A stretch of 64,000 nt of DNA from Escherichia phage fjerdesal. Shown piece by piece: positions 25,150 through 44,608 of this stretch (positions within the stretch are counted from its first letter, which is position 1; the number at the start of each line of letters is the position of its first letter). The position numbers and the translations under genes were made by a program. The notes under the pieces are model-generated. The model ran no database searches and was not told the DNA's origin. It saw only the letters and a list, made by a program, of their open reading frames with translations. Location: sequence record MN850605.1. One strand, written 5' to 3'.

Positions 25150-25160
25150 AATATCTTAAG

Positions 25161-25186
25161 AGCCTCCTTAATTGGGGGCTTTTTAA
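25161..25186 (+). terminator. rho-independent terminator ending the plus-strand block
   Basis: AGCCTCC-TTAATTG-GGGGCT hairpin followed by TTTTT. Confidence 0.55.
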
Positions 25187-26744
25187 TTTTTATAAAATTT
25201 TATCGGTTGTCCCAACCTCTGGGTCACCATCATATGTGAATAAAATATCTATCCTTCTTAACAACCTTCTTAATCTTACTCTCTATATAGTTATATAGTA
25301 CTATATAGTATCTTAGTAACTATCTAGTGGTCTTAATAGCCCTCTGTATAGCCCTTCTAAATAGCCATCTAAACACTCTTCTAACAAGCCTTCTAAACAA
25401 CCTATACAATCATCTTAACCATCTCTCTATATCCTCTTAGAAGCTCCTATACACCTCTTAATCTCTAGGTTAGCTATGTTACTCTCTATAGGTGTTCACT
25501 AGGTACTACTAAGCCTCTATATAGACTGTTTTAACAAACTTAACAGGAATATCTTCACAGACCTTATCTCACAAGGTCTAACACGGTACTAACAAGGTAT
25601 CTTATAAGCCTGTTATTACCTGTATTTTTAAAAGGCTGTATAGGTAATTATTCAGAATCTTAAAATTTTTATAAAATAGGGCTATCAAGTCATTTTTTAG
25701 GGTCTTTGAAGGAACTGAAAAATATCTGATTAGGATGTATATCTGCTTGGTAGCCCTTAACAGCCCCTTAACACCCCCTTTGCAAAATTTTAAAATATCC
25801 TTAACAATCTCTTAACAGTTCTCACATCTTCTTAACAACCCTTCAAAGGTCTTAACAGATTCTTAACAGAACTAACAAGGCTGTAACAGTTTTCTAACAA
25901 GTGCTGAATAGGCTTTACAGAATCTTAACAGATGACTAACAAGAGCTAACAAGTTAATTTTAAAGAGTTATTTTGTTAAGATAATTAACAAGTTCCTAAC
26001 AAGTGTTTAATCTTTTTAACAAGCTATTAACATGGTCACTATCTCTTGGTCTATAGTTCCCTTTCCCTCTTAGTGATTCTTTAAACATACCTCTTAAAAG
26101 CTCTCTATAGCTCTTTATAAGCTCTTTTAAGTCTCTTCCTAGTAGTTACACCCCAACTATACAGAAAGCTTTTTATAGGGCTTTACAGGAGCTTTTAAGG
26201 CTATGTCAAAGGCTCTTACAAGGCTTTTACATGGTCTTAACAGAGATTTAACAAGGGGCTAACAAGTCTCTAACAAGTGCCTTAAAAGCATAACTATGTA
26301 GGGATTGTTAAGAAATTGTTAAGAAAATGTTAAGGGGGCTAGCATTTACGTAACTTTTAAGCTACTTTATATCCCCTATAACATACTTTTAAGACACTAA
26401 CAAGCCCTTTTTAGATATTCACAAGATAGCTAACGAGATGATAAAGCTTACACCCTTATAAGATTCTTTTAAGGCTGTAGGAAGCTTTATAAAGAGCTTT
26501 TAAGGGTGAGTTAATGCAATCCCTTAAGTTAGGTTGATAAGGCTGTTATAGAGCTTTATAGAGCGTTTAAACGGTTGCCCTTCCCTTTCGGGTTATGGGC
26601 TTTTATTTAAGTTGATTTGATAAGAGATTATAGAGTAGACTATAGAGTTATTGCTTTTAAGGTCTGGTAAGATTCTATCGAATCAGTAGGGTAGATTCTG
26701 GAAAGGAAAGGAAAGGGATTGTATAGAGGTTATTACATAGACGT
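25187..26744. repeat. 1.6-kb ORF-free motif-dense region (CTTAACAR / CTAACAAG array; GCTTTATAAAGAGCTTTTAAGG family)
   Basis: No ORF of 60 aa or more on any strand; many short direct repeats; lies between convergent plus- and minus-strand gene blocks. Confidence 0.6.
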
Positions 26745-26790
26745 AAAAAAGCCCCTATGAGAAGGAGCTTTGCAGGTATCTGGGGCTATT
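26745..26790 (-). terminator. putative terminator for minus-strand early array
   Basis: Minus strand GCCCC...GGGGC hairpin followed by TTTTTT. Confidence 0.35.
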
Positions 26791-26807
26791 TAGCCCCGTT
26801 GCGTCGA

Positions 26808-27056
26808 TTAGTTGTAACCTTGTTTATTGTAGTACAGTGAGATAATCAAGTCACCCCAGTAATGATAGTGATGCTCGTCGTTTAATGCCTCTTTTACAGC
26901 GTCTTTCCAGAAGTCATCAGTAGGGTTATAATCTGGGATAACTTGCTTGATAACTGTCTTCACTAATGAAAAGCATTCATCAGTTCCACCGATATCAAAT
27001 TTAACGTCCAGAGTATAACAGCCATAAGCATTGACAGTTGCGCGGATAGTTGCCAT
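26808..27056 (-). CDS. hypothetical early protein
   Basis: 82-aa ORF preceded by conserved promoter-hairpin-SD cassette. Confidence 0.55.
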   Translation of the reverse strand: MATIRATVNAYGCYTLDVKFDIGGTDECFSLVKTVIKQVIPDYNPTDDFWKDAVKEALNDEHHYHYWGDLIISLYYNKQGYN

Positions 27057-27122
27057 TTTTTGAATCTCCTAGTTTAAGGACTTTACTTAGTGGGGAAGGT
27101 CATTCCCTCCCCGTTGATTAGT

Positions 27123-27151
27123 AATTTACTGCATGTTGGCGTATGTTGCAA
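27123..27151 (-). promoter_or_regulatory. early promoter cassette type A (TTGCAA-N17-TAAATT) followed by 5' hairpin and SD
   Basis: -10 overlaps stop codon of upstream gene; hairpin GGGGAGGG/CCTTCCCC then AGGAGA SD. Confidence 0.55.
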
Positions 27152-27389
27152 GCCTTTTTTCGTTGTATTTTGTCAGAATCTCACAAGATAAAACATCATA
27201 TTTTGTAACCGCTTTGCCTTTGTCGAGGTCAAAGAATCCGAACGCTTTACCATCTTTGAATCCGACAACTTCGTAAGATTCTTTGATGATTTCACCATTG
27301 AACAAATCACTTTCGATACGGTGAAATAATGCTACATCTTCTTTGTCGGTTGCAATTTGTAAAAGTGTGGTTAATTCTACGTTTTCCAT
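27126..27389 (-). CDS. hypothetical early protein
   Basis: 87-aa ORF. Confidence 0.55.
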   Translation of the reverse strand: MENVELTTLLQIATDKEDVALFHRIESDLFNGEIIKESYEVVGFKDGKAFGFFDLDKGKAVTKYDVLSCEILTKYNEKRLATYANMQ

Positions 27390-27449
27390 CTTGATGCCCC
27401 TAGTTTAAGGATTTTATTGAGTGGGGGAGGTCATCCCCCGTTAATGAGT

Positions 27450-27478
27450 AATTTACAGATTTTTGATTGTCTCGTCAA
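27450..27478 (-). promoter_or_regulatory. early promoter cassette type A (TTGACG-N17-TAAATT)
   Basis: Conserved GTAAATTAC -10 region followed by hairpin and SD. Confidence 0.55.
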
Positions 27479-27983
27479 TGTCTTTTTCAATAGCTTTTAA
27501 AGTTTTTTCTAAGTTCTTGATATTGAAAGATAAACCCTCTCCCAATGTTTTGCTGTAACCACTAGGGCGCAAGTCATGCAGTTCGATTTCTTCCACTTCG
27601 AAGAGACTAACCAACTCACCGCTTACACTGTAAGCCATTGAAACAGTATTTACAGGGGCTTTATAGAACTTGTTTAAGGACTTGATAGAACGCTCATAAG
27701 CCATTTTATAACCGTTTAAAAGGTCTTTAACGTGGTTGCGAACGTTTTTACACTCATCTAAGTAAATCCCTAAGAATAGCGGTAATAACTCTGCTACAGC
27801 TTGCATAAAGTGAGAGACTACAACGGTTGCAACATTACGACGATGTACATAATAAGCCCCATTTTCTGATTTAGTGATGGTTGCAAAGTGTACCCCATTG
27901 CAGCGAAATTCGTAGGTATCTTTAACAGGCTTAGCCATTACAGCATTTGAACGAATGTAGTTGATAGCTTGAAATTTGTTCAT
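27453..27983 (-). CDS. hypothetical early protein
   Basis: Track ORF 27453..28028 trimmed to ATG positioned by conserved cassette SD. Confidence 0.5.
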   Translation of the reverse strand: MNKFQAINYIRSNAVMAKPVKDTYEFRCNGVHFATITKSENGAYYVHRRNVATVVVSHFMQAVAELLPLFLGIYLDECKNVRNHVKDLLNGYKMAYERSIKSLNKFYKAPVNTVSMAYSVSGELVSLFEVEEIELHDLRPSGYSKTLGEGLSFNIKNLEKTLKAIEKDIDETIKNL

Positions 27984-28046
27984 TTTTGAATCTCCTAGTT
28001 TAAGGACTTTATTTAGTGGGGAGGTCATTACCTCCCGTTGATTAGT

Positions 28047-28075
28047 AATTTACTTGTTTTGATATCTGATTGCAA
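28047..28075 (-). promoter_or_regulatory. early promoter cassette type A (TTGCAA-N17-TAAATT)
   Basis: Same architecture as other cassettes. Confidence 0.55.
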
Positions 28076-28203
28076 GCAATTTTTTAAGTTTATCTATAAA
28101 GAATCTTTTAAGTTAATCCCTTTTAGATAAACCCCCTCGAACAAATCTACCAATGTCAAGGGGCGTTGTCAATACTTTTTGAAAGTTTTTTGTAAGTTAT
28201 TGA

Positions 28204-28545
28204 TTAACTGATGAATATTTTTTCAGGTTTTACATAGCTGATACGCTGACTTTTTAGCAGGTCATCCCAGATTAACGCGGCGATATGGGCATAACCGGAT
28301 TCACGTAAAAGCTTCATTGTTTTACTTCTCGTTTCAAAACGGCTTGCGTAGTACTCACTATTTAAAACCGTTTTATTCCCTTCGTTATCTACATGGATAA
28401 TCTGCATCACTTGAAAGGGGCTTGTGTCCTCGCCTTTGTTCCACTGTTCAAAGTATTTTAGGCACTGCATAGGTGACATCTTATCACTTACTTGAGTTGA
28501 CCAAGATGAATTTTCTTTATCGGTAATTACGGTTACATAAGCCAT
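28204..28545 (-). CDS. hypothetical early protein
   Basis: 113-aa ORF. Confidence 0.55.
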   Translation of the reverse strand: MAYVTVITDKENSSWSTQVSDKMSPMQCLKYFEQWNKGEDTSPFQVMQIIHVDNEGNKTVLNSEYYASRFETRSKTMKLLRESGYAHIAALIWDDLLKSQRISYVKPEKIFIS

Positions 28546-28610
28546 TTTTGAATCTCCTAGTTTAAGGATTGTACTTAGTGGGGAAGGTCATTCCCTCCCC
28601 GTTGATTGAC

Positions 28611-28639
28611 AATTTACAGATTTTTATCAGGCTTGTCTA
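28611..28639 (-). promoter_or_regulatory. early promoter cassette type A (TAGACA-N17-TAAATT)
   Basis: Same architecture. Confidence 0.5.
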
Positions 28640-28870
28640 GTCTTTTTCAATGATAATTTCATACTGACCATCTACGCTGTCAAAATAGATACCGTCTTCA
28701 TCTTCTGTCTTAAAGTAACATTGTATATCATCACTAGCGGGATAGTCTTGTCTTGCTATCTGACAGACCTGAACAGCATTTTCTTTACTTCCTGTAAACT
28801 CCTCAAGCCCTTTAAAATCACATGAATGACCATTACAAATAGAAAGGATAAGATAAACGGTTGTAAGCAT
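28637..28870 (-). CDS. hypothetical small secreted/membrane protein (Cys-containing)
   Basis: 77 aa with N-terminal hydrophobic segment MLTTVYLILSICNGHSC. Confidence 0.5.
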   Translation of the reverse strand: MLTTVYLILSICNGHSCDFKGLEEFTGSKENAVQVCQIARQDYPASDDIQCYFKTEDEDGIYFDSVDGQYEIIIEKD

Positions 28871-28936
28871 GATTTAAGCCTCTTAAAAGCCCCTGTGAGG
28901 GGCTAATCAGTGTTTATAAGGTGATTGCATAGGTTT

Positions 28937-29479
28937 TTAGAAAAAGCTCTTTAAATCTCTCTCTGTGATGTTTCCCGCTAGTGTATCCATGATGTCACAA
29001 AAAACCTGAATACTATCCGACTGTTGAATACTTTTAGCAAGAAGCTCCAGAGACTCATCAAGATAATTTAAATTTGGGTTATCCAATGAAGGAAGACAAA
29101 AAGGCGAAAACATCGCATTAAACTCGGTTACGTAAACCTTTTTAATCCAATTTAAATCGAAGTATTCTGTAAAACTTGCTACGCCAGACATATTATCACA
29201 AGAATAATCATCATTCAGGTCATCCTCTGGGATATCAAGTTCTAAGATAACAATATTTTGGGTTTTCATCTGGAAAGCGGCCGTAATAGTGGCATTACCT
29301 AACGCTTGCTGGATGCCTTCGGCTGTTATCTCTTCCTCATCGTCGCCATAGATTTTATTTTCTGGATACACGTAAAAATTGCCGTCCATGTCCGAACAAT
29401 TCCATGCACCTGATGGCTTGTCACCGTTATTAATCAGGTTGAGGAAATTTTCTTGAGTAGTACCGTGAAAGCATTTCAT
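28937..29479 (-). CDS. hypothetical early protein, possible ADP-ribosyltransferase fold (HGT motif)
   Basis: 180 aa; N-terminal FHGTTQENFLNLINNG resembles the H-G-[ST]...N...I...G NAD-binding motif of H-Y-E class ARTs (PARP/diphtheria-toxin/Tpt1-like), followed by GNFYVYPE; unverified. Confidence 0.5.
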   Translation of the reverse strand: MKCFHGTTQENFLNLINNGDKPSGAWNCSDMDGNFYVYPENKIYGDDEEEITAEGIQQALGNATITAAFQMKTQNIVILELDIPEDDLNDDYSCDNMSGVASFTEYFDLNWIKKVYVTEFNAMFSPFCLPSLDNPNLNYLDESLELLAKSIQQSDSIQVFCDIMDTLAGNITERDLKSFF

Positions 29480-29530
29480 TTTTGAATCTCCAGTTTAGGA
29501 TTTAGTGGTAAAGCTCTTTATCTGGGGCTT

Positions 29531-29559
29531 ACTTTATCGAACTATAAGCCCCTTGTAAA
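29531..29559 (-). promoter_or_regulatory. early promoter cassette type B (TTTACA-N17-TAAAGT) with GGGGCTTA/TAAGCCCC hairpin
   Basis: Near-identical cassette copies at about 30333, 31404 and 31751. Confidence 0.5.
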
Positions 29560-29564
29560 GTACT

Positions 29565-29768
29565 TTATTTGTTATTTTTTACTACTTTTAAAACCGCACG
29601 ATAGCCTAAGCAATAGGAATCACCGAAGAGCGACCGACCCATGAAGGAGTCCTCTGTAATATCTTTCGCCGTGACGGTTTTTTCTACGCCGTGAAAGAGA
29701 ACTACATCACCGACTTTAATATCTTTGATGTGTGTAGTTTCAATGGTTAAACCGTTAATAATAGCCAT
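29565..29768 (-). CDS. hypothetical early protein
   Basis: 67-aa ORF. Confidence 0.5.
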   Translation of the reverse strand: MAIINGLTIETTHIKDIKVGDVVLFHGVEKTVTAKDITEDSFMGRSLFGDSYCLGYRAVLKVVKNNK

Positions 29769-29831
29769 TTTTGAATCTCCAGTTTAGGACTTTATTTAGT
29801 GGGGAAGGTCATTCCCGCCCCGTTGATGTGT

Positions 29832-29860
29832 AATTTAATCTATCTGAAAACCAATGTCAA
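29832..29860 (-). promoter_or_regulatory. early promoter cassette type A (TTGACA-N17-TAAATT)
   Basis: Consensus -35; preceded on plus strand by T14 tract. Confidence 0.55.
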
Positions 29861-29875
29861 CAATTTTTTTTTTTT

Positions 29876-30280
29876 TTAGAGTTCTGCATAAATTGCATCA
29901 CAGATACCACGAAAATCATGATTTGTCAAATTACGTTGTAACCAAGTGGCGAAAAAGTCAGCGATTGCAAAGTTAGCGTCATACTCGACAGATAGCCACA
30001 CTTTAACAGCAAACCGAAACATTTTCAAATCAAGCTCTTTATTCATTACCTTAGATTTGCCTAACATGTCGGACATTTCATATTGTGCACCGTCTAGCGT
30101 GATACCTGCTGCAACGTCAGCCAATGAGTTTTTTACGTTTTCAACGTCTAAGATAACGCTTTGAATCTTCCCAATAATGTTGTGCAATGTTTCGTCCGGT
30201 GCTGATGACGTAATAACATTAATCCGGTTAACGGTCAAACGTGCTTTTAAGATTGATAACTCGCGATTATTAATAGCCAT
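29876..30280 (-). CDS. hypothetical early protein
   Basis: Track ORF 29876..30295 trimmed: upstream MENLK codons are part of conserved cassette; SD-positioned ATG gives MAINNRE... Confidence 0.5.
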   Translation of the reverse strand: MAINNRELSILKARLTVNRINVITSSAPDETLHNIIGKIQSVILDVENVKNSLADVAAGITLDGAQYEMSDMLGKSKVMNKELDLKMFRFAVKVWLSVEYDANFAIADFFATWLQRNLTNHDFRGICDAIYAEL

Positions 30281-30332
30281 TTTTAAGTTCTCCAATTTAG
30301 GATTTAGTGGTAAAGCTCTTTATCTGGGGCTT

Positions 30333-30361
30333 ACTTTATCGAACTATAAGCCCCTTGTAAA
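30333..30361 (-). promoter_or_regulatory. early promoter cassette type B (TTTACA-N17-TAAAGT)
   Basis: Cassette copy. Confidence 0.5.
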
Positions 30362-30366
30362 GTACT

Positions 30367-30639
30367 TTATACTAAATGCAGCTTTTTACCTTTTACTATG
30401 ATGTAACTCGATGCGCTATTGCTTTGCACATCCTGATAAATTCTGCGCAAACGGCCTTCGTAGTATACTTTCCAACTGGTTGGAATCTTTTTCCCGTATC
30501 CTGTAGCAGTTTTTTGTAGTCCTGCAAGTTGCCAATCTAAGATATGTTGTTCGGCTTGTAAATCCTCGAAGTGCATTACACCGTTCACATAGTGACGAAG
30601 GGTTACGTTTAAGGTGCGACCGTTGTTAGTAGTATACAT
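30367..30639 (-). CDS. hypothetical early protein
   Basis: 90-aa ORF. Confidence 0.5.
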   Translation of the reverse strand: MYTTNNGRTLNVTLRHYVNGVMHFEDLQAEQHILDWQLAGLQKTATGYGKKIPTSWKVYYEGRLRRIYQDVQSNSASSYIIVKGKKLHLV

Positions 30640-30701
30640 TTTGAATCTCCTAGTTTAAGGACTTTGTTTAGTGGGGAGGTCATTACCTCCCGTTGATTAG
30701 T

Positions 30702-30730
30702 AATTTACTTGTTTTAAAAACCAAAATCAA
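30702..30730 (-). promoter_or_regulatory. early promoter cassette type A (TTGATT-N17-TAAATT)
   Basis: Cassette copy. Confidence 0.5.
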
Positions 30731-31059
30731 GAGAAATTTTTTCGTTTGCTCAATTCTTGAACAATTACAGCGTAGTAGTCTTTTAAGTCACTGACATTTA
30801 AAGCATTTATCAGAGAATTATAATCATCGACTAACTGAAAATCATCTTTGAAAATGTCGCTGATTTGATAAGTTTTTGATTGAAATCTGAAGCTCATTTC
30901 TAACCGTTTTATTTGTTCATCACTTAAACGCTCCAGAAAGCTCATTACAAGGCTATTATTGACCTGTTGCGTGATTGCCTTATTTGCTAGATTATAGGCT
31001 TTATATGCCTTATATAGCGCGAAAATGGCAATGATTGCAGTGATACCAGTCATTAACAT
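30727..31059 (-). CDS. hypothetical membrane protein
   Basis: 110 aa with N-terminal TM segment. Confidence 0.5.
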   Translation of the reverse strand: MLMTGITAIIAIFALYKAYKAYNLANKAITQQVNNSLVMSFLERLSDEQIKRLEMSFRFQSKTYQISDIFKDDFQLVDDYNSLINALNVSDLKDYYAVIVQELSKRKNFS

Positions 31060-31349
31060 GGTGTTTCCTCTTTACGTGATACTTTGCCATTTACAGTTAT
31101 CTCATAAGAATCTAGTAAGTCACTTTTAGATTTTACTGGACTTTTAAAAGTATCATCATAAATATTTACTTGCAATACAGGTTTTTTATACTCCCTGCAA
31201 CTATTCCATAAACAAATCACTACACGACGGCCTTTTATTTTACCGTGCAACCATTCCATAACATCATGATTATTTCTTGATGTCTCGATAAAATCAATTT
31301 TGTTGAGTAACTTGCTTAGATTTTCACGAACTTTATTGGATAATTTCAT
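31053..31349 (-). CDS. hypothetical early protein
   Basis: 98-aa ORF. Confidence 0.5.
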   Translation of the reverse strand: MKLSNKVRENLSKLLNKIDFIETSRNNHDVMEWLHGKIKGRRVVICLWNSCREYKKPVLQVNIYDDTFKSPVKSKSDLLDSYEITVNGKVSRKEETPC

Positions 31350-31403
31350 TTTTGAGTCTCCTAGTTTAAGGGTTAATTTGATAAAGCTCTTTATCTGGGG
31401 CTT

Positions 31404-31432
31404 AAGATATCAACTTTTAAGCCCCTTGTAAA
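31404..31432 (-). promoter_or_regulatory. early promoter cassette type B variant (TTTACA-N17-TATCTT)
   Basis: Cassette copy. Confidence 0.45.
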
Positions 31433-31440
31433 GTACTTTA

Positions 31441-31698
31441 TCAGATTAAATTGCCAGTTAATGATAAGTGCATTTTGTAACCTTGTTTAGTGAATACGTT
31501 CACTTTACCGAGTGTTTTTACACCTTTAAAAAGGTTATTTGAACTGCGTTTTAAGGTTAAATGTTTATCAGCCTTCACGCCCCACCTTACATTAGATTGT
31601 TTTCCGTTGTCAACCACTTTCCCGCATAACTTTTTAGCCATAACGCGAGCGTCATCACGAGTTTTTGCAGCAATTACAACGTTTTTGATAATAGCCAT
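31441..31698 (-). CDS. hypothetical early basic protein
   Basis: Track ORF 31441..31713 trimmed to cassette-positioned ATG (MAIIKNV...). Confidence 0.5.
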   Translation of the reverse strand: MAIIKNVVIAAKTRDDARVMAKKLCGKVVDNGKQSNVRWGVKADKHLTLKRSSNNLFKGVKTLGKVNVFTKQGYKMHLSLTGNLI

Positions 31699-31750
31699 TT
31701 TTAAGTTCTCCAATTTAGGATTTAGTGGTAAAGCTCTTTATCTGGGGCTT

Positions 31751-31779
31751 ACTTTATCGAACTATAAGCCCCTTGTAAA
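31751..31779 (-). promoter_or_regulatory. early promoter cassette type B (TTTACA-N17-TAAAGT)
   Basis: Cassette copy. Confidence 0.5.
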
Positions 31780-31784
31780 GTACT

Positions 31785-32165
31785 TTATTTAATTTTGAAG
31801 ATAGTTACGTAACCATCACTACCGATTATTTGAGACACTCCAGCTTTTTCTACTTGATAGCCCATATTTTCAAGATGATAAACAGCATCATCATAACCAT
31901 ATGCGCCACCCTGATAACGTCTCTTATCGCATTTTATCAGGTTTTTACCACGTCCCGCAAGTGCATGCAAAATGGCTTTTTCACTTGAAAGAGTACCATC
32001 TAGCATTGTCGCCGTGTAATGGTTGATTTTATTCCCGTTAATATCATACTTGAAATTGAACGAGTGAACAACAATAACGTTACCTTTAAAATTCTCATCA
32101 AGTGACTTCTCCAGTACGCTACGAAAGTTGTCTTTGTTGATGAATTTAGGTGCACGATATTTCAT
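31785..32165 (-). CDS. hypothetical early protein (first gene of array)
   Basis: 126-aa ORF. Confidence 0.55.
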   Translation of the reverse strand: MKYRAPKFINKDNFRSVLEKSLDENFKGNVIVVHSFNFKYDINGNKINHYTATMLDGTLSSEKAILHALAGRGKNLIKCDKRRYQGGAYGYDDAVYHLENMGYQVEKAGVSQIIGSDGYVTIFKIK

Positions 32166-32214
32166 TTTTGAATCTCCTAGTTTAAGGACTTTAATTTTTG
32201 GGGTCCGGCATTTC

Positions 32215-32227
32215 CCCCCCCCCCCCG
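32215..32227. repeat. homopolymeric C13 (G13 on minus strand) in 5' leader hairpin position
   Basis: 13 consecutive C at 32215-32227, replacing the GGGGAGGG arm seen in other cassettes. Confidence 0.7.
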
Positions 32228-32236
32228 TTGATGCAA

Positions 32237-32265
32237 ATACTAGATAACCCCGTTCAAAGAGTCAA
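32237..32265 (-). promoter_or_regulatory. strong sigma70-type promoter (TTGACT-N17-TAGTAT) heading the early gene array
   Basis: Minus strand TTGACTCTTTGAACGGGGTTATCTAGTAT followed by CAACGGGG leader. Confidence 0.6.
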
Positions 32266-32693: not shown

Positions 32694-33479
32694 TTAGTTC
32701 TTTGCGGCTAAGAAGGTAACTTCTGGCGAAGAGAAAACTGTCTCGATATCCTCATCAGTTCTTGCATAGATGTAAGTATCTGCATCACTGCCAAATGTTA
32801 CTGCAATCCTGTGATTGCTCTTCGACAGGTGGGTAACTAGAGCGTTACTTAGAGACATCTTTTCAACCGGAGGGTTACTTTGATGTATCTTACCTTTTCT
32901 TCGTCTGAAGAGGGTAACTGCATTATCCGTGAACACAACTACACCTGCGAAGTATTCTGGTTCACAGTAGTTCTTCCAACCTGAGCGTAACTTGTGGTAC
33001 ATCTCTCCTTCATAGACATATAGATAAACATCTACGCTCTTCATTACCTGATTGATGATAACTGTGACGGCTTGAGGGTCCAACCCACCGATACCTGCAC
33101 CAATCATAGGTAAACCAACTTTCTTCAACTGATTAACTTCACAGTATCTGTTAAGTTGCTTCAAAGATGACTCTAAAGCACTGTATCGGGCATCTTTACC
33201 AGTCTTAAGCTGAGTGTAAAGGTTAGCTATACGACCTTGTTTTAAACGTGCTACGGAGAAATTACCTAGTAAATTTTCACAGGGTTTGTGGCCTATACCA
33301 CCTGCATATAGATAAACTTCTGTATCGGTCTCATATGCTTCTGGGTAAAGTTTAGAAATCTTGTCAGCGATACCTGCACCCATTAAATTCATACAGTTGC
33401 AACCGTGACCAATGATGTCAAACTTACCTTTATCAAATGCAGCAAAGATGTCACCATTGATGATTTTTACAATACCCAT
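32694..33479 (-). CDS. macro-domain protein (ADP-ribose binding/processing) with C-terminal extension
   Basis: 261 aa; N-terminal INGDIFAA...FDIIGHGCNCMNLMGAGIADKI and VGLPMIGAGIGGL match macro-domain glycine-rich motifs. Confidence 0.6.
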   Translation of the reverse strand: MGIVKIINGDIFAAFDKGKFDIIGHGCNCMNLMGAGIADKISKLYPEAYETDTEVYLYAGGIGHKPCENLLGNFSVARLKQGRIANLYTQLKTGKDARYSALESSLKQLNRYCEVNQLKKVGLPMIGAGIGGLDPQAVTVIINQVMKSVDVYLYVYEGEMYHKLRSGWKNYCEPEYFAGVVVFTDNAVTLFRRRKGKIHQSNPPVEKMSLSNALVTHLSKSNHRIAVTFGSDADTYIYARTDEDIETVFSSPEVTFLAAKN

Positions 33480-41609: not shown

Positions 41610-43391
41610 TTAAAGCTGCTTGTCAATATTATTTCGAATATCACCAAGAGTTGTGTAACCGTACTGCTCAGAGTCGCTAAAGACTAAACGTAAAGCACAA
41701 GCTGGATGTTCAAGTGCATCTGCAAAGCTCTGGAATCCATAGCCATCTACAGCTTTCAAATTCTCACCATCCCACATAGGTGCTACACCACCAAAGGCAG
41801 ATTTCTTAACACCACTATCTGTTTTAGGGTCTTTTGCAAGCATAATCTCTTTGCCACCAATGCTTGCAAGAGTTGCTTTGACAGCAAATGCAAAGGTGTC
41901 ACGAGTCATGTACTGGTAAGTGTAAGAGCCTACACCAAACACCACGTTAGAGCTTGCAAACCCCATTTCATACAGACGCTTTAGGATTTCGTTTGCACGT
42001 TCCAACGTGATAGAGTCACCATAGATAAGTCCAATGTGCTCATCCAGTACCTTAAAACCTTTAGAGTTGATAGTTCCTCCAAAGATGTTATACAATGTCT
42101 TAATAGCTCCATCAATCTCTGCTACAGGGCGTGTTACAACGTTTGCAGAGCCAACCATATAAGCGTTCTTCAACATCACTGTGTCAGCAACTTCAAAGTC
42201 TTCTCTGTCAACAACCATTTCGTAGCCTTCTGACAGTAGCCATCCAGCAATACCATAGCTGACGTTTTCAAGCTTCATGTTCAGAACAGCATTCAGCATT
42301 GTGTCACTGGCTTCCAGCTTACTAAGGTGCTCATAATAAGCCTTTTTAGCGCACTCTAAGTGGATTGCTTTATAACCTGTGACAATGTGTACAGGGTCTC
42401 CAGAGTCAGGACGAATTACCAGTTTGCCATCACGTTCCATAATTTCTTTACGGAGTGCTGGTAAGATTTCTGACACAGTTCTCCAGAAGTTATAAGTATC
42501 TGAAACAATACTTGCAATACCCGTTGGGTAAGTTTCTGTTAAGAAACGACGGAAGGTTTGTAACTCACCTTTAAAGCGTCTTTCTTCTTCAATCAACTCA
42601 TTGCCACCTTCCCAAGCAATGTTTGCACACATTACAGAGTGCTCAGTGGCTGGTACAGAGCTACCAATATCAGAGATTGGGTAGGACTGTCCATAGATTC
42701 GTTTAGCCGTATACACAGCAGGGAAGCTATCAGTTCCTTTAAAGCTGGTTAAGTGACCTACAGCGTTAAATGCGTCATCAGTAAAGCCGGACATACCACG
42801 CATAGCAAAATCATGGCACTGATAAGGTAAATGTAAGTCATTGTCACAAGTAAGGTCAGCCCACTTCTTACAGATGCGTTTGTAATGCAATGCAATAGTT
42901 GCAATGGTGCAAGCCTTCCAAATTTCAGCAGAGAAAGCATCTTCCAGATAACCTGCTACCCAATGAAAACCTGAAACAGTGTTCTGAAAGACAATCATCG
43001 GGACACGCATTGGAACAACTGTGCCTTCTTCTACAGCGTATACTTCAACTGGTAGATAACCTAAGTCGTGAAGTGCTTCCCAATGCTCTCGACCGATAGC
43101 ATCTTTACCCAGAACACCATTCATGACTTCTAAGATTTCATCAATGGCTTCTTTTTTATCACGTTCAAAGAAAGTGGCATTCCAGTGGTCTATCAAGTAA
43201 TCTTTAACAAAACGTTGAATACCAAAAGCCACTACACCGTCAATTGCTAAAGGGCTGTTAAACCATTTATCACTACGTGGTGTTAGGTTGAACATCAAGT
43301 ACTCTGTTGCGCTAGGATACTGGTAAACATGACCAGATTTGTAAGCATCTGCATTTAAACCTGCTGGTACTGCATAAAGTGATTTAGTCAT
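41610..43391 (-). CDS. nicotinamide phosphoribosyltransferase family protein (NAMPT/NadV-like; possible NARP1 Namat)
   Basis: 593 aa; N-terminal NADAYKSGH... and overall NAPRTase-family look; adjacent to Prs-like gene. Confidence 0.7.
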   Translation of the reverse strand: MTKSLYAVPAGLNADAYKSGHVYQYPSATEYLMFNLTPRSDKWFNSPLAIDGVVAFGIQRFVKDYLIDHWNATFFERDKKEAIDEILEVMNGVLGKDAIGREHWEALHDLGYLPVEVYAVEEGTVVPMRVPMIVFQNTVSGFHWVAGYLEDAFSAEIWKACTIATIALHYKRICKKWADLTCDNDLHLPYQCHDFAMRGMSGFTDDAFNAVGHLTSFKGTDSFPAVYTAKRIYGQSYPISDIGSSVPATEHSVMCANIAWEGGNELIEEERRFKGELQTFRRFLTETYPTGIASIVSDTYNFWRTVSEILPALRKEIMERDGKLVIRPDSGDPVHIVTGYKAIHLECAKKAYYEHLSKLEASDTMLNAVLNMKLENVSYGIAGWLLSEGYEMVVDREDFEVADTVMLKNAYMVGSANVVTRPVAEIDGAIKTLYNIFGGTINSKGFKVLDEHIGLIYGDSITLERANEILKRLYEMGFASSNVVFGVGSYTYQYMTRDTFAFAVKATLASIGGKEIMLAKDPKTDSGVKKSAFGGVAPMWDGENLKAVDGYGFQSFADALEHPACALRLVFSDSEQYGYTTLGDIRNNIDKQL

Positions 43392-43436
43392 CTTTTAATC
43401 TCTCTCAAAATGGGGCTTGGAAGCCCCTATAAAGTT

Positions 43437-44318
43437 TTAATCAAGGTTTGCTACAGTAACTTGGCTATAATGTGTTAAGCCACGGTCTTTAGCTTCTCCT
43501 AAAGAGTTTGTAGTGTAGATATGGTCAATACCATTGTCAAGCAAGTTTTCAACATCTTTAGAGAAGATACCATGTGTTACATAGAGTTCCACACGTTTTG
43601 CACCTGCTTCACGAAGATGCTTAGCTGCTTCTATGAAGGTTCGACCACCATCACAGATATCATCCAGAATCATGACTGTTTTATCTGTCAAATCAACATC
43701 ATCAAGGATTCGCATACCAGTAATTTCACCAGTCTTAAGGTTACGCACCTTAGACATTGTGATATATGGTTTATCCACCTCTTTAGCGGTCTCTGCAACC
43801 TTCTTAGCAGCACCTGCATCTGGGGCTACTAAGTAATCAACCAGTGGGTCATTTGCATAGTGGACTGCAATCTCCTTTTGAGGAATACTCTGGAAGCAGT
43901 TAAACAGGTTATCTGGAACGTAACTGTGAGGGTCAACTGCACAGACTGCACCAAACCCCATTGCATTTATCTGTTTAGCAAAAACCTTTAAAGCTGCTGC
44001 GTCGCCTTTAAACATGTGACGGTCATAACGTGCATTTGGTAAGTAGTAAAAGATGACAGTCTTTAAAGCATAATCATGAGGAATTAAATCATCAATTGCT
44101 TCTTTAGCAAGTGCCACAGCAAACAATGTATCCTTATCATAACCTTTTACAATCATAATCACATTGTTGATGGATGATGCTGCATAAGCAGTGAAATCAA
44201 CAAACTCTGGCGAAAAGTGTCCACCAATCTCACCAGAAGGAAATTGGATGATGTTAAACTCATCTTCATGAGTTCCTTTAGTTGGTGAATGAACTGTAAC
44301 ACGGATAGATGTTTTCAT
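43437..44318 (-). CDS. ribose-phosphate pyrophosphokinase family protein (Prs-like; possible NARP1 Adps)
   Basis: PRPP-binding motif VMILDDICDGGRT; start set at SD-preceded ATG (track ORF extends to 44333). Confidence 0.7.
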   Translation of the reverse strand: MKTSIRVTVHSPTKGTHEDEFNIIQFPSGEIGGHFSPEFVDFTAYAASSINNVIMIVKGYDKDTLFAVALAKEAIDDLIPHDYALKTVIFYYLPNARYDRHMFKGDAAALKVFAKQINAMGFGAVCAVDPHSYVPDNLFNCFQSIPQKEIAVHYANDPLVDYLVAPDAGAAKKVAETAKEVDKPYITMSKVRNLKTGEITGMRILDDVDLTDKTVMILDDICDGGRTFIEAAKHLREAGAKRVELYVTHGIFSKDVENLLDNGIDHIYTTNSLGEAKDRGLTHYSQVTVANLD

Positions 44319-44329
44319 AGTTTTCTCTC

Positions 44330-44608
44330 TCAATCAAAAGTTACGTTTGTTACTGCCATTGCAGATTTGCATTTTGCAGGGTCTACAACGTGATAAAGTA
44401 CACTACAGTTACCTGTGCTGTCTGGTACAGGTTTAACCCATTGTTGCTTGACAGTTGGTTCGCCTAAGTCTTTGTAAGAACCATCTGTAAAGTTGTTTAC
44501 CATCTCAAGTGCAATTGGCTCTGGAACATGACCACGTATCATGTACATTTCACAACCATTACCTCCTTCACTGACTAATGGTAAAATCTCCCACTTTTCT
44601 TTAGCCAT
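44330..44608 (-). CDS. hypothetical protein
   Basis: 92-aa ORF. Confidence 0.5.
   Translation of the reverse strand: MAKEKWEILPLVSEGGNGCEMYMIRGHVPEPIALEMVNNFTDGSYKDLGEPTVKQQWVKPVPDSTGNCSVLYHVVDPAKCKSAMAVTNVTFD

Follow-up and report, generated by a model that had tools for sequence, protein, structure and literature searches.

What does the product of the short gene at positions 28937-29479 of Escherichia phage fjerdesal (MN850605.1) do? The gene lies in the window, by which we mean the whole 64,000-nucleotide stretch that was analysed, and its orthologues, BARRY_0019 and bas63_0107, are labelled 'hypothetical protein' in all records examined. A preliminary description made from the sequence had placed a 180-aa protein here and had read its N-terminus as suggestive of an H-Y-E ADP-ribosyltransferase (ART) fold. 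An ATG-to-TAA ORF of 180 aa does occupy these positions, and its strand, which had been left unstated, is the minus strand.

28937..29479, minus strand: the ART-fold protein, full ORF with its TAA stop; orthologue of bas63_0107 and BARRY_0019; PHROG 3303

The two strings quoted earlier are both present in the translation, FHGTTQENFLNLINNG as residues 4-19 and GNFYVYPE as residues 33-40, and the N-terminus reads MKCFHGTTQENFLNLINNG. The start codon was confirmed because M-x-x-[FY]-H-G-T is the N-terminus of every member of the protein family described below; GGAG is found 8 nt 5' of the ATG (29488-29491). Between positions 28000 and 30500 the window is 99.7% identical to Escherichia phage heid, which places it in Felixounavirus (Felix O1-like myoviruses), and the region is matched by 244 phage records, chiefly of that genus. 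The protein is very acidic, with a pI of 4.05, a net charge of -22 and one Arg, and the median pI of its family is 4.3. The best reading is that the product is small, cytoplasmic and stand-alone.

The gene is bounded by two elements that resemble signals of transcription.

29524..29559, minus strand: 36-nt cassette core directly upstream, with a sigma-70-like promoter and a hairpin
28884..28904, minus strand: terminator-like hairpin AGCCCCU-CAC-AGGGGCU followed by UUU (UUUU with the last stem base), dG -14.9, z -2.15

The promoter-like part consists of TTTACA (29554-29559), a 17-nt spacer and TAAAGT (29531-29536), and the hairpin GGGGCTTA/TAAGCCCC overlaps the -10 element of the core. The terminator-like element, a GC hairpin of 7 bp, lies 33 nt past the stop codon, and a terminator is annotated at the equivalent place in phage Barry. 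Because a promoter cassette lies upstream and a terminator-like hairpin downstream, the gene looks monocistronic and readable by the host RNA polymerase, and the sigma-70-like cassette would fit early expression.

Exact copies of the 36-nt core were found in the region at 29524-29559, 30326-30361 and 31744-31779, with a chance expectation of 0. Nearly all small minus-strand genes from 27057 to 32237 (about 27.0-32.3 kb) are preceded by one of two repeated cassettes. Cassette D1 (7 copies of ~73 nt) has a GGGGAAGG...CCCTCCCC hairpin, a shared leader and an RBS, and cassette D2 (4 copies of ~100 nt) has the TTTACA-N17-TAAAGT promoter with the GGGGCTTA/TAAGCCCC hairpin across its -10 element. Both resemble the shuffling cassettes called 'promoter-early stem-loop' in T4-type phages. 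The swapping of genes and alleles in the region could be mediated by D1 and D2. A separate feature lies at 25150-27050, where plus- and minus-strand gene blocks meet in a divergent junction of ~1.9 kb that has no ORF of at least 150 aa; the syntenic region of Bas63 has no annotated CDS. At 25868-26291 it contains a 37-nt unit, repeated four times (repeat family D4), in which CTAACAAG / TAACAG motifs abound. The junction may serve as an origin or in regulation.

We then looked for relatives of the protein. PHROGs assigned it to phrog_3303, of 'unknown function', with an E-value of 8e-91. NCBIfam and PADLOC searches gave no match, and the sole Pfam match, to CTD12, had a sub-threshold E-value of 0.035; CTD12 as the family was rejected and the match taken as noise. 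Searches of PDB sequences with the protein and with family profiles gave nothing significant, and nothing better than E 0.3 by profile. Thus the confident homology to an unrelated family that would have spoken against the ART reading was found in none of the Pfam, NCBIfam, PADLOC and PDB searches. Word-indexed searches returned Ounavirinae relatives only. When 1.84 billion cluster representatives were searched exhaustively with an HMM, 325 proteins were matched at E<=1e-3, 138 of them at E<=1e-10. The full-length members among the matches listed are single-domain proteins of ~150-240 aa, in which the match spans the N-terminal 120-170 residues.

By tblastn against 50,697 phage genomes, the family was found in 375 records, with one copy in each. 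The carriers are Felixounavirus and related Ounavirinae of Escherichia, Salmonella, Shigella, Citrobacter and Erwinia, together with Pakpunavirus phages of Pseudomonas (JG004, PaP1, PaoP5, C11) and 138-kb Vibrio phages. Metagenomic members lie on large phage contigs, within long co-directional arrays of small unknown genes, and all the family contexts examined are those of phages. The signature DD[YW]SC[DE]NM was also sought in 185,579 genomes of bacteria and archaea, and no relative was found. The family is phage-restricted as far as these searches show and named by no curated library searched, although it may have been catalogued earlier under another name. No paper was found on the gene, on its family or on an ART in Felixounavirus. 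It is a new, uncharacterised family; the kind of enzyme that we propose below is already known.

The surroundings of the family members were compared as well. No neighbour gene is common to independent lineages, and no conserved partner or immunity gene was found. The hallmarks of toxin-antitoxin and polymorphic-toxin systems are missing, namely a conserved adjacent immunity or antitoxin gene and an N-terminal delivery domain, the members being single-domain proteins. On a marine phage contig of 57 kb, a gene for a 66-aa product (L005 9716-9916) matches AcrIC5 in Pfam and stands ~6 kb downstream of the family member in one array of small genes, which fits an anti-defence or accessory region.

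The structure of the protein was predicted with AlphaFold2. The models, built on 24-27 sequences, had a pLDDT of 75.6 and a pTM of 0.76 with a close alignment, and a pLDDT of 83.3 and a pTM of 0.81, with no segment below 50, when relatives of 22-40% identity were included. Both show b1 (residues 2-8), a1 (9-16), a loop, b2 (34-39), a2 (48-70), b3 (74-82), a vestigial b4 (89-90), b5 (101-104) and b6 (112-120), followed by helices to residue 179. The secondary-structure order b1-a-b2-a-b3-b4-b5-b6 typical of ARTs is present in the model, as judged by the order of the elements and not by sheet pairing.

29117..29479, minus strand: ART-fold core, residues 1-121, from the predicted model

The matches of a Foldseek search were weaker, with a best E-value of 0.05 and TM values of 0.3-0.4, but the first 29 of them were all ARTs. 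ARTs were returned almost exclusively from three structure libraries, the top matches being R-S-E toxins (cholera, LT, pertussis). Among the viral structures, the neighbours that bear a name are phage proteins with a DarT or Arr annotation. Bacillus phage G is represented there too, by several proteins; this phage reportedly encodes at least 10 ARTs (PMC9503650). The fold suggested in the preliminary description was in this way borne out by structure prediction and fold search, which gave the ART-type order of elements and almost only ART matches, and we regard an ART fold as well supported by the predicted models.

No profile match to a curated ART family was significant, every match being below threshold. 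When 117 members were scanned singly against Pfam, 22 touched PARP and 5 touched Tpt1/KptA; by chance, ~0.005 members would be expected for any single Pfam family, compared with the 22 observed for PARP. The PARP match of one member, P0111 (E 6e-4), runs from H-G-T via W-N-C-S to 'IYFYE' on b2 over profile positions 49-103, and another member, P0183, matches PF22546 2CompART (E 2e-4) over a2, b3, D-x-S-C-x-N-M, b5 and b6. The N-terminus of the family profile aligns with 'LFHGTAEKNFDLILKDGIKK' of Tpt1. As to the likeness to PARP that had been proposed from the N-terminus, the PARP1 string cited for it, LLWHGSRTTNFAGILSQGL...GKGIYFAD, occurs exactly in PARP1 PDB chains, and the Pfam PARP profile is collinear with P0111 from H-G-T to the Tyr of b2. 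We also observed near-threshold matches to DUF6912 (Pfam) in 4 of the 117 members, the best with an E-value of 7e-5 and 23.5 bits against a cut-off of 27. These matches (P0060 residues 51-140, P0194 48-99) span a2, b3 and the D-x-S-C-x-N-M region, and DUF6912 may be a related, unrecognised ART-like family. No mention of DUF6912 was found in the literature.

Could HGT...Y be a coincidence, and the match in fold a product of modelling on a shallow alignment, so that the protein would be no ART at all? The small number of sequences behind the models (24-27 only), Foldseek E-values above 0.01 and a probability of 3% in hhalign against Arr would all agree with this. However, the same topology was obtained from two independent alignments, ARTs were nearly the sole matches in three structure libraries, and the sub-threshold matches to three ART Pfam families are far above chance (22 for PARP vs ~0.005), so that we hold this explanation to be very unlikely.

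In ARTs the active-site triad is carried by b1, b2 and b5, and the clades are named H-H-h, H-Y-[EDQ] and R-[ST]-E after it (PMC9503650, PMC9825190). Given these places, H5 would be the first triad residue of the phage protein and Y36 the second. We examined conservation in an alignment of 147 relatives with identities of 22-50%, and the conserved positions fall into four short segments.

29459..29467, minus strand: H5-G6-T7 on b1, predicted NAD-binding His motif and triad position 1, from conservation and the Tpt1 and PARP alignments
29393..29404, minus strand: W26-N-C-S29 loop between a1 and b2, from conservation; low pLDDT
29366..29374, minus strand: Y36-V-Y38 on b2, with the predicted nicotinamide-stacking Tyr, triad position 2, from conservation and the PARP match in P0111
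29189..29209, minus strand: D91-Y-S93-C94-D-N96-M97 signature loop, b4 to b5, from conservation and the Arr D84 register in a non-significant alignment

H5 is kept in 98% of the relatives, G6 in 95% and T7 in 90%, and Y36 in 99%, demonstrating that the HGT motif singled out in the preliminary description is no chance pattern; position 38 is Y, W or H. W26 (100%) and S29 (97%) mark the loop between a1 and b2, which probably forms a wall of the active site. The signature loop is conserved at D91 (100%), S93 (100%), C94 (90%), N96 (88%) and M97 (96%), followed by A101 (88%).

The third triad residue is less plain. No Glu is conserved in the 147-relative alignment, and residues 98-101, at the canonical pre-b5 position, are not acidic. 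E80 and D82 were considered as the catalytic acid and rejected, E80 being kept in just 61% of the members and lying on b3, not b5. D91 is the sole invariant acid and stands at the end of the vestigial b4, 10 residues before b5, which makes it, with moderate confidence and as judged from conservation, the best candidate for the third, catalytic residue. Of the H-Y-E signature suggested earlier, the H on b1 and the Y on b2 are there and the Glu is not. Because no Glu is conserved and D91 is the only invariant acid, the signature is more aptly called H-Y-D-like, as in Arr, than H-Y-E.

Arr (PF12120; 2hw2, 9iba) is a minimal H-Y-D ART, and the order of its motifs is common to the phage family. For the Arr comparison we used an Arr-2 sequence that was checked against PDB 9iba (149/150 residues identical). 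In Arr-ms (2hw2), direct counting gave H19 for the His of 'LHGT', Y49 for the Tyr of 'HIYIT' and, for the second of the two Asp in 'IEDDPN', D84. An hhalign comparison of the family with the Arr profile was non-significant (E 0.013-0.025, 2-3% probability); its best local alignment, likewise non-significant, covers a2 and b3 and sets 'L-x-D-D91' over 'F-E-D-D' of Arr. A permissive extension of this non-significant alignment gave one collinear path, in which H5 meets the His, Y36 the Tyr and D91 the Asp (D84) of Arr. The correspondence is an agreement in motif order and not a proof of kinship. A specific kinship with Arr found no support, since hhalign gave a 3% probability and no member reaches PF12120. 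Features that set the phage family apart from Arr are an a2 of 23 residues, the motifs W-x-C-S and S-C-x-N-M, and a further C-terminal region, helical and ~60 residues long; Arr is bacterial and its substrate is a small molecule, whereas the phage family is confined to phages.

The other ART clades differ more clearly. Unlike the H-Y-E ARTs of the PARP and diphtheria-toxin kind (PF00644), the family has no conserved Glu on b5, a much smaller core and no helical regulatory or donor-loop elaboration, and all its PF00644 matches are below the gathering score. The R-S-E enzymes (cholera/LT/pertussis toxins, T4 Alt/Mod) are marked by an Arg on b1, S-T-S on b2 and an ARTT loop with E-x-E/Q-x-E, and these hallmarks were not found in the protein: b1 carries a His, the single Arg is unconserved and there is no ExE motif. 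Members of the H-H-h clade, Tpt1/KptA and CC0527, and the TreTu/TreX Rhs toxins differ from the family, in which b2 has a Tyr instead of a His, the Arg tetrad, an N-terminal RNA-binding domain and a cognate immunity gene are missing, and the protein is acidic, not basic.

The H-G-T motif aligns both with 'LFHGT' of Tpt1 and with PARP Pfam profile positions 49-76. We considered whether the protein could be a Tpt1/KptA-like RNA 2'-phosphotransferase, or an enzyme that ADP-ribosylates nucleic-acid ends, serving RNA repair together with a phage polynucleotide kinase/RNA ligase. Tpt1/KptA enzymes have an N-terminal winged-helix domain, an R-H-R-R catalytic tetrad and a His on b2. In the phage protein b1 opens the only domain, with no winged helix before it, and b2 has a Tyr, not the His of the H-H-h clade. 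No basic residue is conserved in the 147 relatives beyond K42, the best such column at 66%; with a single Arg and no conserved basic residues, the R-H-R-R tetrad is absent. The extreme acidity of the protein (pI 4.05) also disfavours RNA binding, and the probability of a role in RNA repair seems to us very slight indeed.

Among phage ARTs that act against host proteins, ModA, ModB and AcrIF11 are likewise small, stand-alone and early or accessory, and AcrIF11 provides a precedent for an ART as an anti-defence enzyme. The known phage ARTs have each brought to light a different route to altering the host or to overcoming its immunity. A census of viral ARTs places them in 16 previously defined families, including 'N4-like' and 'p0068-like' ARTs of H-Y-[EDQ] type, and reports that phages of Escherichia, Shigella and Salmonella have p0068-like ARTs, paired with Dmd as the antitoxin (PMC9503650). 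Both are predicted phage ARTs of the clade to which the fjerdesal family would belong, and we asked whether the family is one of them. No Dmd-like neighbour of the ART-fold gene was found by Pfam or PHROGs. In 60 records out of 802 matches, the Dmd carriers are T-even-type phages and one 74-kb unannotated record, with no Felixounavirus. A dmd-adjacent 105-aa ORF ('YYHGS...VFFTE') scored -1 bit with the family HMM and has only HG[ST] in common with the family. Identity with the 'p0068-like + Dmd' system was thus rejected, there being no Dmd neighbour and no match of the dmd-adjacent ORF to the family HMM. The N4-like family has a homologue in phage N4 and is often fused to MuF. The family HMM, which gave a positive control 186 bits, matched none of the N4 ORFs at an E-value under 0.4; identity with the 'N4-like' ARTs was rejected as well, no N4 ORF being matched and no member having a fused domain.

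The same comparison brought a separate observation on T-even phages. In RB69-type and Dhakavirus phages, an ORF of 105-150 aa abuts or overlaps dmd (L013 2172-2621; L014 2174-2491), with the motifs 'YYHGS...RVFFTE...LYRV' and a weak similarity to Arr-ms (E 0.23), and in Shf125875 an annotated ORF runs into dmd in a different frame. This mini-ART and the dmd that it abuts presumably correspond to the toxin-antitoxin pair 'p0068-like ART + Dmd', a prediction of PMC9503650.

ARTs use NAD+, and the preliminary description had seen an NAD theme in the window. Three NAD-related genes are indeed found in it, 3-14 kb from the ART-fold gene.

41610-43391, in the window: NAMPT
43437-44333, in the window: Prs
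32694-33479, minus strand: macro-domain protein of 261 aa, Pfam E 1e-7 over the N-terminal 150 residues

The theme stands at the level of the genome only, with the genes 3-14 kb off and a macro family that is widespread. The macro family has 2,849 phage records and the ART-fold family 375, and the macro gene occurs within the flanks of family members in Ounavirinae only. A functional pairing of the DarT/DarG kind with the macro gene was accordingly rejected as specific evidence, the macro family being far wider and its presence in the flanks limited to Ounavirinae. The product of 32694-33479 is labelled 'putative phosphatase' in related phages, and its macro relatives are of the T4 Tk.4 type; ~110 C-terminal residues lie outside the macro domain and have no assignment. 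In the sampled flanks, NAD-related genes were seen in Ounavirinae and one Vibrio-type contig only. At the genome level, a NAD-salvage gene of the NAMPT or Namat type was present in each carrier lineage that could be checked, and NAMPT-family genes occur in ~4% of phage records; the loci noted are 41610-44333 in the window and those of Pakpunavirus C11 (H59, H165), Erwinia phage EAP4 (H157) and a further locus (L002 15100-16549). The co-occurrence is only suggestive because the independent lineages are few: the ART may be linked to a NAD+ supply secured by the phage, or the co-occurrence may reflect just large lytic genomes.

These genes bear on the possibility that the ART fold serves no transfer to a macromolecule and instead binds, hydrolyses or sequesters NAD+ or an immune signal derived from ADP-ribose (e.g. 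Thoeris gcADPR, His-ADPR), the protein being a NADase, a phosphorylase, a sponge or an anti-defence protein that degrades the signal. Phage domains that handle ADP-ribose more often counter soluble ADP-ribose derivatives, and some ART clades are NADases or phosphorylases (PMC9503650), which lends this explanation some backing. H and Y are ligand-pocket residues whose conservation would be expected for binding alone, the canonical Glu of b5 is absent, and NAD salvage accompanies the family in every lineage that could be checked. On the other hand, the invariant D91, S93, C94 and N96 would suit catalysis better than the binding of a ligand alone, the salvage genes are not close to the ART-fold gene, and there is no similarity to known sponges, the lone match to Tad6 (E 0.0055, 1 of 117 members) being noise. 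We consider this explanation unlikely.

The remaining part of the protein lies outside the core.

28940..29116, minus strand: poorly conserved, acidic, helical C-terminal region, residues 122-180, from alignment, model and composition

This region is a candidate target-recognition module. A protein so acidic could also be a non-enzymatic scaffold with an ART fold, a stoichiometric inhibitor of a host DNA- or RNA-binding protein or of a defence protein that acts as a mimic or decoy, with its conserved residues serving the structure or an interface. What is conserved at ~25% identity, however, is the H-G-T of the NAD pocket, the Tyr and the polar loop and not acidic patches on the surface, and an invariant N-terminal H-G-T is rare among decoys. 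We therefore think such a scaffold quite improbable.

Taken together, these data lead us to propose that the protein is a phage mono-ADP-ribosyltransferase of a new family that acts on a host target, a reading that we favour and consider reasonably likely. That it is a NAD-using enzyme is put at about the same strength, and we are less confident about the class of the target; the protein would probably modify a host molecule chemically during infection. In the proposed mechanism, NAD+ would be bound in the cleft of the split sheet and held by H5-G6-T7 of b1 and by Y36 and Y/W38 of b2, and the invariant loops W26-x-C-S29 and D91-x-S-C-x-N-M would close over the nicotinamide-ribose. D91 would fill the role of the catalytic Glu/Asp of H-Y-[EDQ] enzymes, like D84 of Arr, and a single ADP-ribose would be transferred to a host target chosen by the variable, acidic, helical residues 122-180. 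With a net charge of -22, a basic protein is a likelier partner than a nucleic acid. Because the gene looks like a transcription unit of its own with a host-type promoter, early action is probable, whether it serves the take-over of the host or counters a defence system.

The family comprises at least 325 clusters of sequences and is carried by 375 sequenced phages, yet it is absent from Pfam, NCBIfam and PADLOC and listed as 'unknown' in PHROGs, and its carriers include Felixounavirus and Pakpunavirus, genera used in therapy. A defined target would add an enzyme-substrate pair to phage-host biology and would explain one of many conserved 'hypothetical' early genes, and it might reveal the working of an ART that lacks the canonical glutamate of b5. 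The family is directly testable because the BASEL phage Bas63, which is genetically tractable, infects E. coli K-12; the ART-fold protein is 96.7% identical to its Bas63 orthologue.

Finally, we compared the locus with that of VpaE1_ev108, a phage of the same genus. The ART-fold proteins of the two phages are 54.8% identical, whereas seven flanking proteins are 88-96% identical. The counterpart of 28937-29479 in VpaE1_ev108 (L011 2501-3064) keeps all the signature residues. Such a divergence suggests that one allele has replaced another at a fixed slot, or that diversifying selection is strong, which would be expected of a protein that deals with a host factor that varies. Divergence of one gene among otherwise near-identical phages suggests selection from host variation, and the allelic diversity would fit an arms race. 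A more far-reaching version of our proposal, which we offer tentatively and regard as doubtful in its entirety, is that an enzyme with a non-canonical active site (H, Y and the D-x-S-C-x-N-M loop) disables a host immune or core protein covalently, or destroys an immune signal derived from NAD. It would then represent a new class of anti-defence or host-takeover enzymes common to Felixounavirus, Pakpunavirus and marine Vibrio phages. In an arms race with the target, its alleles would be swapped between phages by way of the promoter/terminator cassettes at its flanks. As a minor observation at the same locus, VpaE1_ev108 has an additional 82-aa gene inserted just upstream of its ART-fold gene (L011 2166-2411).
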